Assembly: GCA_964576925.1 (NCBI GenBank)
Contig: CAZNWJ010000010.1
Coordinates: 69,736 to 133,735, forward strand
Source of the DNA: an uncultured Ignavibacteria bacterium
GTDB lineage: Bacteria; Zixibacteria; MSB-5A5; CAIYYT01
Length of the DNA stretch: 64,000 nt
Direction of reading: 5' to 3'
Part shown: positions 22,588-25,914 of the stretch, piece after piece
Numbering within the stretch: the first letter of the stretch is position 1
Layout of the letters: each line of letters begins with the position of its first letter
Translations under genes and position numbers: made by a program
The notes under the pieces: generated by a model
Seen by the model: only the letters and a program-made list of their open reading frames with translations
What the model was told of the DNA's origin: nothing
The model's database searches: none

Positions 22588-23775
22588 CTAAGATCCACCG
22601 TCCCCAAACAGATCGCCCCCAGAGACTTTGTCGCCTGACTGGTAAGTCGCCGGCCGCTCCTTGATTCGCACAATCTGATTTGCCGTCAATGCCTCCTTGA
22701 TCAACTCCCGCGTCGCAGCCATGGACAAACCCAACGCCTCGCTGATCTCCGATGTCCGGTGCGGTTGCTGCAGGTACTCGACCAATCGCAACAATCGTTC
22801 GTCTGCTCGATTCGTGCCTTGGCCATCGTTCCTTGCCCGCAGCTTGCTCTCCAGTAGCTCCGGCAGAGCATCTCCCGACCTGAGCTCATCGATCGTCAGC
22901 GCCACCGCCCCGCGGCGGATCAAATGCTGATTCCCGGGACCGCTGTCAGCAGACTCACGGACGAAGAGCGGTGCGAAGCCGTGCCGTAAGTTCTCAATCG
23001 CTCCGTTCCATGTACCGCCCTTTTCGTAATCGCTGTCGACTACGAGCGCGTAGTCGGACAGGGCATAAATGATTTTGTTCCTGCCCATGGCACTCGCTAC
23101 CGAAAACGGCAGCGAAGGAGAATTAGGCGTGATGACACAAAGCGAGCCGTACTCCATCAGTTCCAGCGTCTCGCGTTCCTTGATCGCACGCTCGAGACTG
23201 TCCGCGAGCACGCCCAGCGCATTGCCGCCCGCAGACACCGCCGCCCGCATCGCTTCTTGATCAATACCGCGCGCTCCGCCCGAGATCACTGTCATCCCTG
23301 CGGCCGCTGTCGCCGTGCCCGCGCCCTCGGCAAATTGCCGCGCCCCTTCGCTCATGTTGCGTGCACCAACAATAGCGATGCCGCCTTCACTGAGAAGCTG
23401 CTCTCTGCCCGCGCCAAAAACGACCATCGGACAGCGCGTCCCCAATCGTTCGACAAGCCGGGTCGGAAAGCGCACGTCAAATCGTGTAAGCATCCAGATC
23501 CCGGCACTCGCGAAACGATCCATTCGCACAAGCAGTCGATCTGCTCCGCCGAGCAAGTGCGCCAGTCGGTCGGCTACCTGCTGCTCGCAACCGAGGTGAC
23601 GTATGATCTCCTCCGCCGCTAGGCCCAACAGCTCGCCCGGTGATGTTCGCGATTCACCGATTACACGCTGCCACTCTGTCGGCGTTACCGGCGCAACCAC
23701 CGCCTCGTCACTCAAACCAAGCGGAGTACACAAAAGCGCCGCAGCCAGGCTATCATTACTTAGCATATGTCTCAC
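22588..23775 (-). CDS. dprA: DNA-processing protein DprA (Smf family)
   Basis: Rossmann DprA core with GGARGID…A and downstream pattern; C-terminal winged-helix-like tail; 22-nt gap to the upstream helicase gene on the same strand. Confidence 0.8.
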   Translation of the reverse strand: MRHMLSNDSLAAALLCTPLGLSDEAVVAPVTPTEWQRVIGESRTSPGELLGLAAEEIIRHLGCEQQVADRLAHLLGGADRLLVRMDRFASAGIWMLTRFDVRFPTRLVERLGTRCPMVVFGAGREQLLSEGGIAIVGARNMSEGARQFAEGAGTATAAAGMTVISGGARGIDQEAMRAAVSAGGNALGVLADSLERAIKERETLELMEYGSLCVITPNSPSLPFSVASAMGRNKIIYALSDYALVVDSDYEKGGTWNGAIENLRHGFAPLFVRESADSGPGNQHLIRRGAVALTIDELRSGDALPELLESKLRARNDGQGTNRADERLLRLVEYLQQPHRTSEISEALGLSMAATRELIKEALTANQIVRIKERPATYQSGDKVSGGDLFGDGGS

Positions 23776-23796
23776 CAGACTCCCATTCCACGCACC

Positions 23797-25914
23797 CTAT
23801 CCCAGCCCGCTGCCGGCGTACGCGAGCGCAAACGGAAACACCTTGCCCGCTCCCGCCTCCCGCAGCAACGCTCCAGTATAGGTCAGCGTCCAGCGTGAAT
23901 CCACAATATCGTCAACCAGCAGGACGGGGCCGCGCAGAATCTCTTCCCGCCGCACCTGAAACGCTCCGGCCAGATTCCGCACCTGCTGAACCCGGTTCTG
24001 CATCAGCTTCTGCTCAGCCGTCGGTTTGATTTTGACCAACACCTCCCGGTAGGGAATCGCCAGCCGGATGGCCAGACGTCTGGCAAAGTCGCTCACCAGG
24101 CGTGGGTGGCGCAGGGAAGGCACCGATGCGACCCATCCCGGGTAGGGCCGTGGTCGCCAGCGTCCAACGATAAGCTCGCAACTGGCCTCCACCAGTTCGT
24201 TTGAGAAGTTGCTGTCGCAGTACTTTCCGTCATGCACCTTCTGCCCCCAGCCGGCGTCGAAGTATTCACAAAGCGCTCGTCCCGGCTCGATCCTGAGATT
24301 CGCGCCGATCGTCGCGACCTTCCAGCGCGTCGCGCTCGCGGCCGGCCACATCTTTCGCGGTGCGATGAAATACTCCGACTGCTTCAGGAAGGCGACCGCG
24401 CGTTGAATCAACCGCGGATCAACGGTCTTCTCGATCTGTTTCCCGGTGCAGTTGGCGCACTTGCCGCAGGGCACGCAGTGTGGATCGTCAAGCGCATTCC
24501 CGATGAAACTCATGTAACAGCCGTCGTATGCGCACAGCTCCTTCATCGCCTCCATTTCGCGATAGCGCCGGTCCGTCACCATCGCCTGGTGTTTGCGGTT
24601 GATTCGCTGCGCCACACCTGAATTGATCCGATACCGGCTGCCCGTCTTCGCTACAACTTCCTCAACTTCCAGGTACTTCAGACAGCGTTCGATCCTCCCG
24701 GGCGGCTGGTTGACACAGTTGAGCATCTGCGGCAGGCTGATTCCATCGGCCGCCTGTGATAGGCTCTCCAGTATCGCATCAACAACCGGCTCAGACGGGA
24801 ATGCTGTCTCAATGAAGTACGAATTGATCTTGTCATCTTCCGCCCCATGCAGCAATACCACCACGGCATGGTCAATCGCCCTCCCCGCGCGTCCGATCTG
24901 TTGATAATAGGCAACAATCGAACCGGGACGCTGAAAGTGTATCACGAAACCGAGATCGGGTTTGTCATAGCCCATCCCCAGCGCCACGGTCGCTACCAAA
25001 GCCTTCACCCGATTACGCAACAGCATTTCCTCACGCTCCTGGCGCAAACGATTATTCTCCGCTTCGTCATCGGCAAGGGATGCATGATAGGGAAGGGCGG
25101 CAATGTTGTTCTGGCTTAGCCATGCCGCAACCTGCTCGCAATCGTGCTTCGTCAGGCAGTACACTATTCCGGAGCCGGCAAACGACTCCAGGTTTTGCGC
25201 TAGCCAACCAAGACGGGCGGCATAAGAGGGAAGCTCGACAACCTCCAGATGCAGCGACTCGCGCAACAACGGCCCGCGAACGACCTTAAGATCAAGCCCA
25301 AGTTGCACCGAAATATCTTCAACCACCCGGTCATTGGCGGTCGCCGTCGTTGCCAGAATCGGAGTAGTTTCAGGAAGCATTGCCGCAAACCTGCGGATGC
25401 GGCGGTAATCGGGGCGAAAATCATGCCCCCAGTCCGAAATGCAGTGCGCCTCATCGACCACGAACAGGCCGATGCCGTTTTTCAGGGCAGGCAACACTTC
25501 GGCACAAAACTCGTCGTTGGCCAGGCGCTCCGGCGAGATTAACAGCACGTCGCAGGAGTCACCAGTAAGCAACCCACGAATTCGCGGCCACTCCTCGCGA
25601 TTCGTCGAGTCGATGTTGTACGCCCGAATGCCAATCCTCTCCGCCATCGCAATCTGATTCCTCATCAGCGACAACAGCGGACTGATCAGGAGCGTCGGCC
25701 CTGCTCCGCTCTCGCGCAGCAGCCGCGTCGCGATGAAATACACGAAACTCTTGCCCCAACCCGTCTTCTGAACCACCAATTGCCGTTCCCGGCCGCGAGC
25801 GCAATTGATGATGCACTCTAACTGCCTCGCACGAAATCGCGCGCTGGGATCACTTAGCATTTGCTCAAGGAGTTTCTGCGCCCTTTGCGCCCACATTGCA
25901 TCCCCCAACGGCAA
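23797..25914 (-). CDS. RecQ-family SF2 helicase fused to a C-terminal ComFC-type (phosphoribosyltransferase-like) domain
   Basis: Walker A VVQKTGWGKSFVY, DEAH box FVVDEAHCISDWGHDFRPDY, RecQ motifs through QQIGRAGR, Cys-rich Zn module (C..C…C..C..C). C-terminal …NLAGAFQV…VLLVDDIVDSRWTLTYTGALLREAGAGKV matches the ComFC/PRTase-type PRPP-loop. Confidence 0.7.
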   Translation of the reverse strand: MPLGDAMWAQRAQKLLEQMLSDPSARFRARQLECIINCARGRERQLVVQKTGWGKSFVYFIATRLLRESGAGPTLLISPLLSLMRNQIAMAERIGIRAYNIDSTNREEWPRIRGLLTGDSCDVLLISPERLANDEFCAEVLPALKNGIGLFVVDEAHCISDWGHDFRPDYRRIRRFAAMLPETTPILATTATANDRVVEDISVQLGLDLKVVRGPLLRESLHLEVVELPSYAARLGWLAQNLESFAGSGIVYCLTKHDCEQVAAWLSQNNIAALPYHASLADDEAENNRLRQEREEMLLRNRVKALVATVALGMGYDKPDLGFVIHFQRPGSIVAYYQQIGRAGRAIDHAVVVLLHGAEDDKINSYFIETAFPSEPVVDAILESLSQAADGISLPQMLNCVNQPPGRIERCLKYLEVEEVVAKTGSRYRINSGVAQRINRKHQAMVTDRRYREMEAMKELCAYDGCYMSFIGNALDDPHCVPCGKCANCTGKQIEKTVDPRLIQRAVAFLKQSEYFIAPRKMWPAASATRWKVATIGANLRIEPGRALCEYFDAGWGQKVHDGKYCDSNFSNELVEASCELIVGRWRPRPYPGWVASVPSLRHPRLVSDFARRLAIRLAIPYREVLVKIKPTAEQKLMQNRVQQVRNLAGAFQVRREEILRGPVLLVDDIVDSRWTLTYTGALLREAGAGKVFPFALAYAGSGLG

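Follow-up and report, generated by a model that had tools for sequence, protein, structure and literature searches.

A probable PsyrTA (RqlHI) toxin-antitoxin pair, with a helicase-phosphoribosyltransferase toxin and a DprA-family partner, in an uncultured Ignavibacteria bacterium

The RqlH architecture was defined in 2012 for a protein of Mycobacterium smegmatis (Ordonez, Unciuleac & Shuman; PMC3378886), a 3'-5' helicase whose activity is abolished by the substitutions K49A or D148A (PMC3378886), and the RqlH motor has been shown in homologs to be a single-stranded DNA (ssDNA)-dependent ATPase. In Escherichia coli, RqlH and RqlI bind each other and form an operon with rqlH always upstream of rqlI, and RqlH without RqlI leads to SOS induction, filamentation and growth arrest (Russell & Mulvey 2015, PMC4670107). 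This toxicity needs the phosphoribosyltransferase (PRTase) domain and its residue D663, with D663A or a DIVD to EVME replacement abolishing it in E. coli; the PRTase domain alone is insufficient, helicase-dead mutants are harder to control, and RqlI matters for gut and low-oxygen fitness (PMC4670107). The pair was shown to be a toxin-antitoxin (TA) system in 2013 (Sberro) and 2015 (PMC4670107), and was later placed, as PsyrTA (= RqlHI), among phage-protective TA systems with a DprA-like antitoxin and a PRTase toxin; the pair protects E. coli from phages, and attempts to transform the psyrA deletion failed (Millman 2022, bioRxiv 10.1101/2022.05.11.491447). Here we describe a two-gene locus in a 64,000-nucleotide (nt) stretch of DNA from an uncultured Ignavibacteria bacterium (GenBank assembly GCA_964576925.1, contig CAZNWJ010000010.1, positions 69,736 to 133,735; hereafter the window) that, judging from its sequence, is very probably a PsyrTA module of the type known in anti-phage defence.

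Two other groups of proteins resemble this family. ShosTA also consists of a PRTase toxin, which needs phosphoribosyl pyrophosphate (PRPP) binding for its toxicity, and a DprA-like antitoxin; in that system purine metabolism is disrupted, and ShosA, whose C-terminus is unstable, binds ssDNA as well as RecA (PMC11961720; PMC12961424). Of the systems considered, ShosTA is the nearest with a worked-out mechanism. According to a 2025 preprint, ShosT is the sole defence PRTase to have been characterised biochemically. ShosT differs from PsyrT in carrying an N-terminal pyrophosphatase rather than a helicase, and the two Shos proteins show no mutual binding, in contrast to RqlH and RqlI. The competence proteins ComFA, ComFC and DprA likewise comprise a helicase, a ComF-fold PRTase and a DprA-family protein, and Iyer et al. 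drew this parallel in 2017, speaking of a 'related system' (PMC5512222). The PsyrT motor is nonetheless of the RecQ family and not a ComFA-type DEAD-box helicase, and the role established by experiment for the PsyrTA family is in TA and defence.

The toxin gene psyrT (rqlH) occupies positions 23797..25896 and the antitoxin gene psyrA (rqlI) positions 22588..23766, both on the minus strand of the window. We assign the pair to PsyrTA because both proteins match the corresponding PADLOC models over their full length: the match to PsyrT (PDLC03928, E = 6.9e-265) runs over residues 10-700 and covers 6-684 of the 689 model positions, and that to PsyrA (PDLC03927, E = 6.5e-92) runs over residues 5-379 and covers 3-395 of 398. 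PsyrT is also 48% identical over its full length to a copy on an E. coli plasmid. Its domain order of ATPase, linker, zinc module and ComF-like domain, with no HRDC domain, is the one that defines the RqlH clade; the toxin-then-antitoxin order on one strand is that of the known operons; and the PRPP loop is intact, including the D663 of DIVD that is essential for toxicity in RqlH. With products of 699 and 392 amino acids (aa), compared to 690 and 400 aa in E. coli F11, the two genes keep the order of the described pair, K49, D148 and D663 are identical, and the partner has the same layout of an N-terminal region, a stretch of DprA homology and a C-terminal helix-turn-helix (HTH). Nothing structural sets the window copy apart; it differs in lying in ordinary chromosome and not in a defence island, and in having a 21-30-nt spacer in place of the usual overlap. 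The system is already known, and the window copy is a typical, intact member of it. The novelty implied by an earlier, sequence-only account of this DNA (hereafter the preliminary description) does not hold, the architecture having been published in 2012 (PMC3378886) and the likeness to ComFA/ComFC/DprA in 2017 (PMC5512222).

In the list of open reading frames (ORFs) the pair appears as two minus-strand entries with 21 nt between them, one at 23797..25914 that reads 705 aa from a TTG and one at 22588..23775 that reads 395 aa from a GTG. This agrees, with exact coordinates, with the preliminary description of one 705-aa ORF followed on the same strand by a dprA-like gene; the adjacency and strand given there stand, and its distance of 22 nt becomes 21 nt, or 30 nt if psyrA is read from the ATG at 23766. 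The psyrT product most likely has 699 aa, beginning at the ATG at 25896 rather than at the TTG at 25914, because the gene is called at 699 aa in close relatives and because a Shine-Dalgarno sequence, GGGGGA (25901..25906, minus strand, read directly from the sequence), lies 5 nt ahead of that ATG; the same GGGGGA falls within the first codons of the TTG-started ORF. For psyrA the relatives are called at 392 aa, which corresponds to the ATG at 23766, the GTG at 23775 being the 395-aa alternative. The spacer between the genes (23767..23796, minus strand) measures 21-30 nt depending on the start chosen and contains the Shine-Dalgarno-like sequences GGGAG and GGTGAG. On the minus strand neither a sigma-70 promoter before psyrT nor a terminator after psyrA was predicted.

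Motif positions in PsyrT are given in the 699-aa numbering. The RecQ-like superfamily 2 ATPase/helicase core (residues ~1-346; 24859..25896, minus strand) contains the Walker A motif TGWGKS (45-50) with K49, the DEAH box (148-151) with D148, and motif VI, QQIGRAGR (332-339); further along lie a cysteine cluster and the PRPP-loop motif VLLVDDIVDS (658-667). Pfam finds DEAD (73 bits) and Helicase_C (48 bits). Every element of the RecQ-like core named in the preliminary description (Walker A, DEAH, QxxGRxGR and a zinc module) could be located. K49, D148 and D663, counted from the 699-aa start, carry the same numbers as the residues mutated in RqlH, and in an alignment of 31 homologs that are 45-95% identical to the window protein K49, D148, C460, C477, C480, C483, D662 and D663 are all invariant. 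PsyrT passes the NCBIfam recQ_fam subfamily cut-off (247 bits against 219.8), and the earlier view that the motor is of the RecQ family and not of the ComFA type stands. It fails that of the RecQ equivalog TIGR01389 (279.8 bits against 640.2). Neither PsyrT nor PsyrA has a solved structure; by sequence PsyrT comes closest to ordinary RecQ cores (E~1e-50 in the PDB search) and PsyrA to DprA. With canonical RecQ PsyrT shares helicase motifs 0 to VI and a four-cysteine zinc module, and it departs from it in having no HRDC domain (no Pfam match even at E<=1), an extra linker between ATPase and zinc cysteines, and an added PRTase domain. With M. smegmatis RqlH the agreement extends to the ATPase, the ~90-aa linker, the tetracysteine module, the ComF-like/PRTase C-terminal domain and the missing HRDC; the mycobacterial gene differs in being an orphan with no DprA-like partner, like most actinobacterial copies.

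The core also attracts models for DpdF, the helicase of the 7-deazaguanine DNA-modification (Dpd) system, several PADLOC DpdF models matching (best E 6.7e-90) and the NCBIfam DpdF model NF041063 scoring 112 bits. These matches fall mainly on the shared RecQ-like core, are far weaker than that of PsyrT, and compare with an NF041063 cut-off of 550 bits; the window yielded no other dpd genes. We give almost no credence to a DpdF-type protein here.

Between the end of the ATPase near residue 346 and the start of the zinc region near residue 441 lies the ~90-aa 'RqlH-specific linker' (residues ~347-440; 24577..24858, minus strand), described in 2012 as having no counterpart in RecQ (PMC3378886). 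Its AlphaFold2 (AF2) model (pLDDT 87) has an H-H-H-E-E pattern, all of its Foldseek matches run through winged HTH domains, and the tightest fits are to Z-alpha domains (root-mean-square deviation 1.1 Å, TMt 0.9); two homologs have precomputed Pfam MarR/HTH_24 matches. Since none of the Foldseek matches is statistically significant (best E only 4e-3), a compact winged-helix domain in the linker is put forward as suggestive only. The RecQ-type tetracysteine zinc module that follows (C460, C477, C480, C483; 24415..24576, minus strand) gives a weak Pfam RecQ_Zn_bind match (E 0.02, residues 441-490) and matches the zinc domain of M. smegmatis RqlH (PMC3378886).

The remainder of PsyrT (residues 495-699; 23800..24414, minus strand) is predicted from AF2 and Foldseek to be a ComF-like domain with a type-I PRTase core. 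Its PRPP-binding loop, VLLVDDIVDSRWT, was located as a motif at 23887..23925 (minus strand) and includes both invariant aspartates, D662 and D663. The AF2 model of the 205-aa domain (pLDDT 93, pTM 0.90) has as its top Foldseek match by E-value the PRTase core of PurF (E 1.5e-5, ~125 aligned columns), while the only match to span the whole domain, among the 50 listed, is H. pylori ComF 7p0h (208 columns, TMq 0.60); ShosT is not among these 50. The likeness to ComF was seen only by structural search, as the family profile of the domain matched only generic PRPP loops, those in PRPP synthetase and in PurF, and gave no match to solved ComF or ShosT structures at E<=1. Pfam Pribosyltran reaches 22 bits on PsyrT, slightly below its cut-off of 26.3, and is matched by 13 of 18 homolog C-terminal domains (best E 8e-11). 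The profile searches proposed as a check in the preliminary description have been run, with RecQ_Zn_bind weak, HRDC absent, Pribosyltran sub-threshold and comF below its cut-off.

These results bear on the interpretation favoured in the preliminary description, a non-canonical ssDNA uptake module in which the helicase-PRTase would replace ComFA and ComFC on incoming ssDNA and pass it to a RecA-loading DprA. The whole-domain match to H. pylori ComF speaks for it, as do weak NCBIfam matches to comF (TIGR00201, E 6e-5) and GntX (E 6e-4). Against it, the comF match scores 23 bits where 233.55 are needed and aligns at model positions 112-189 of 190 only, that is, over the last ~80 positions, and the domain has no invariant or near-invariant cysteine in its 205-aa alignment. 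As a consequence the ComFC-type zinc finger is judged to be missing, and the zinc cysteines of PsyrT all sit upstream, in the RecQ-type module. Of the ComFC-like PRTase domain originally proposed, the fold and the PRPP loop were confirmed and the ComFC zinc finger and comF cut-off were not; because 7p0h covers the whole domain, 'ComF-like' seems a fair label at the level of the modelled fold.

The partner protein has some bearing on the uptake proposal as well. PsyrA contains a DprA/SLOG Rossmann-fold domain (22897..23508, minus strand; Pfam DNA_processg_A 114 bits, LDcluster4), and by sequence it is a true DprA-family protein, since the profile matches DprA structures and the DprA signature residues R136, SGGARGVD and R229-N230 are invariant in the PsyrA family. 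A profile of 39 members found DprA 3uqz in the PDB at 2e-22 and ShosA 9vzo/8zva at ~3e-16, and with the single sequence DprA was again nearest (E~1e-8). This genuine DprA kinship, and the relation to ComFA/ComFC that Iyer et al. pointed out, would suit an uptake role. PsyrA nevertheless appears to be a separate subfamily, failing the DprA equivalog TIGR00732 (76.9 bits against 191.15) and scoring 63.5 bits against 495 on PRK10736. Its C-terminal part holds a probable winged HTH (22639..22797, minus strand; weak Pfam HTH matches, E 0.06-0.26), followed by a short tail ending GDLFGDGGS; the pattern '...WLK...PVRY' is conserved in long-form homologs, and the predicted HTH of RqlI is dispensable for antitoxin function (PMC4670107).

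PsyrA lengths are bimodal across loci L006-L085, at ~312-364 aa and ~392-491 aa, with the short forms apparently missing the C-terminal winged helix and its '…WLK…PVRY' pattern. On visual inspection, roughly half of the 39 PsyrA homologs, short and long forms among them, end in a hydrophobic tip (…LF, …LL, …ELF); the stricter pattern [DE][LIVMF][FWLY] in the last 20 residues occurs in only 8 of the 39. The tail of the window copy that ends GDLFGDGGS corresponds to 22591-22620. By analogy to the unstable C-terminus of ShosA, the tip could be a degron, or else a docking peptide.

A scan of reference genomes for PsyrT returned at least 80 loci from many phyla, and the counts that follow refer to the loci listed. 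The fused architecture of ~690-710 aa is found in 80/80 of them and in thousands of database proteins; because it recurs in this way, with the same length, an assembly artefact as the source of the fusion, a possibility raised in the preliminary description, was ruled out. At least 1.2 kb of sequence downstream of the helicase is available at 75 of the 80 loci, and 66 of these 75 have a PsyrA-like gene directly after it on the same strand. Eight of the 75, mostly from Actinomycetota with Chloroflexia, Planctomycetes and Lentisphaerae in addition, have no PsyrA-like gene. A different gene order is seen in just one of the 75, a Chloroflexota locus (L045) in which a DprA-like gene with a weaker match (E 5e-25; 5265-5939) precedes the helicase gene. 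Where starts could be reconstructed (62 listed loci) the psyrT-psyrA spacer has a median of 2 nt, with many overlaps of 4 or 1 nt.

PsyrTA is widespread, with thousands of homologs in bacterial phyla and on haloarchaeal plasmids. The E. coli copy used for comparison above (L001, NZ_OX030731 2820-10097) is lodged in a type I restriction-modification (R-M) operon on a conjugative IncF plasmid, with hsdS on one side and hsdR on the other, and further annotated examples include a Nostoc plasmid pair and a haloarchaeal orphan. Among 5426 complete E. coli genomes, 53 have the same 3.5-kb pair, almost all of them in the chromosome. In one E. coli genome (NZ_CP124405.1, 3043220-3047991) the helicase gene is interrupted by an IS3-family element, and its C-terminal remnant goes under the PGAP name 'ComF family protein'.

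Neither ComEC, ComEA nor pilus genes were found within the 64-kb window. Together with the missed comF and dprA cut-offs (23 against 233 and 77 against 191 bits), the full-length PsyrT and PsyrA matches, the distribution of the family, which takes in plasmid-borne R-M operons, haloarchaea and partnerless actinomycetotal helicases, and experiments on the family that show toxicity, antitoxicity and phage defence and not DNA uptake, this leaves a competence role for PsyrT and PsyrA not supported by the sequence comparisons, and we consider it very improbable. The fallback offered in the preliminary description, a 'DNA-repair or defence-related variant', is the right one, the family being by experiment one of TA and anti-phage systems (PMC4670107; bioRxiv 10.1101/2022.05.11.491447). 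Intact copies are annotated by standard pipelines as 'RecQ family helicase' and 'DprA', and such labels, like 'ComF family protein', invite a competence reading.

The window around psyrTA is ordinary chromosome, encoding MacB/FtsX transporters, M1 and C25 peptidases, FG-GAP proteins and a radical SAM enzyme, as well as (by Pfam) chemotaxis and two-component genes, lipopolysaccharide genes and a protein sorted by the type IX secretion system. No tRNAs or Rfam elements that would mark an integration site were found in it. Gene order was also compared in relatives, as the preliminary description had called for. In a 92%-identical contig (L004) from a metagenome-assembled genome (MAG) and in the distant relative L086, psyrTA occupies this same position, with a C25 peptidase gene on one side and the gene for a 631-aa secreted protein on the other; the nearest record among the matches listed is the MAG GCA_964584025.1. 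Against the close relative the ratio of nonsynonymous to synonymous substitution (dN/dS) is 0.11 for psyrT and 0.15 for psyrA, and the window copy is intact and under purifying selection. Against L086, PsyrA (encoded there at 10123-11331) is 39% identical, PsyrT 66% and the flanking gene 68%: the antitoxin diverges much faster than the toxin, and the toxin keeps pace with the flanking gene.

The segment just upstream of psyrT (25897-26995) differs among the close relatives. It holds a flavin reductase gene on the plus strand in the window (26157-26696), two RRM_1 RNA-binding genes in L004 and both in L086, and homology to L004 sets in again precisely at the start codon of psyrT. A 13-base motif, AAATGTGATTGAC (window 25977-25989, minus strand), is also present ~80 nt upstream of psyrT in L004, the two upstream regions being otherwise non-homologous, and L086 has a related motif, GCGATTGAC. 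The shared motif could serve as a -35 element, or as an operator for the antitoxin HTH.

Taking the pair to be PsyrTA, we picture its action as follows. PsyrT would act as a RecQ-like 3'-5' DNA helicase with the C-terminal ComF-like PRTase as its toxic effector, and PsyrA as a DprA-family ssDNA-binding protein that neutralises it. In the uninfected cell PsyrA, together with the helicase's own activity, would hold the PRTase off. Infection would lift this restraint, either as a labile antitoxin is lost after host shut-off or as ssDNA from the phage, or intermediates of replication, act on PsyrA or on the motor; the freed PRPP-dependent reaction would then disturb nucleotide pools and stall replication, so that infection is aborted or growth arrested.

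Several points weigh against assigning an anti-phage role to this copy. Toxicity, neutralisation and phage protection were shown for homologs and would extend to the window copy by likeness. The steps borrowed from ShosTA may not transfer to PsyrTA, because binding between the partners is seen for RqlH and RqlI but not for ShosT and ShosA, and ShosT is absent from the 50 listed matches of the C-terminal domain. A study of E. coli in its native host background saw no detectable phage protection on PsyrTA deletion or on expression in K-12; ten neighbouring proteins in the window gave no convincing PADLOC match to other defence genes; and a chromosomal site stable down to 66% identity among relatives is less typical of mobile defence genes and fits a part in housekeeping or genome integrity roughly as well as one in immunity.

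That alternative would make the locus a genome-maintenance pair with no part in immunity, RqlH being a repair or recombination helicase and the DprA-like protein its regulator or a RecA loader. Besides the kept site, where the toxin diverges at the pace of its flank, and the purifying selection on both genes, it can draw on the lack of defence neighbours, the E. coli deletion with no phage phenotype, the bona fide 3'-5' helicase activity of M. smegmatis RqlH in the absence of a partner (PMC3378886), and the role of RqlI in gut and low-oxygen fitness (PMC4670107). It leaves unexplained, however, why the PRTase should be toxic and require an inhibitor of its own; the rapid divergence of the antitoxin relative to the toxin is what is expected of a conflict or TA component; phage defence was shown in a heterologous host, and other copies lie in defence or mobile contexts. 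We regard a purely housekeeping pair as improbable, and a maintenance role is in any case compatible with a TA module, the two not being mutually exclusive.

Under a further reading the TA module was domesticated in this lineage as a resident sensor of genome integrity, its linker a Z-alpha-like winged helix that would read unusual DNA, such as non-B DNA or replication intermediates, and gate the PRTase, and the PsyrA tip a degron or a helicase docking peptide. Behind this idea stand the one kept chromosomal site, the toxin diverging with its neighbours and the antitoxin diverging much faster; we hold it to be unlikely.

Some observations concern the neighbours of psyrTA. The gene for the 631-aa protein (20590-22485, minus strand) begins 102 nt after psyrA on the same strand with no predicted terminator between, and is syntenic in both relatives, with 68% identity to the copy in L086; its product has a signal peptide and about eleven 'G-N/D-D-x-Y' repeats, and it matched nothing in Pfam or PADLOC. 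Two very large secreted proteins, one with FG-GAP and Ig-like domains (15134-18256, plus strand) and one a C25 gingipain-like peptidase (27060-32042, minus strand), end in the same duplicated dockerin-like tail (…GDADC.G.V.ISDAVYLI.YIF.GGPAPC…), and window positions 18091-18243 cross-match the tail of the peptidase gene in the relatives.

Our findings make small additions to what is known of the family, namely the candidate winged helix of the linker (not significant), the fast-evolving antitoxin and the recurrent hydrophobic tip at the C-terminus of PsyrA, and the window copy contributes a clean, intact PsyrTA example from an uncultivated lineage. If true, a domesticated sensor would be a hitherto undescribed kind of link between the sensing of DNA structure and PRPP chemistry. 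For loci of this kind in general, a search with defence and TA models should precede any proposal of a new DNA-uptake system.

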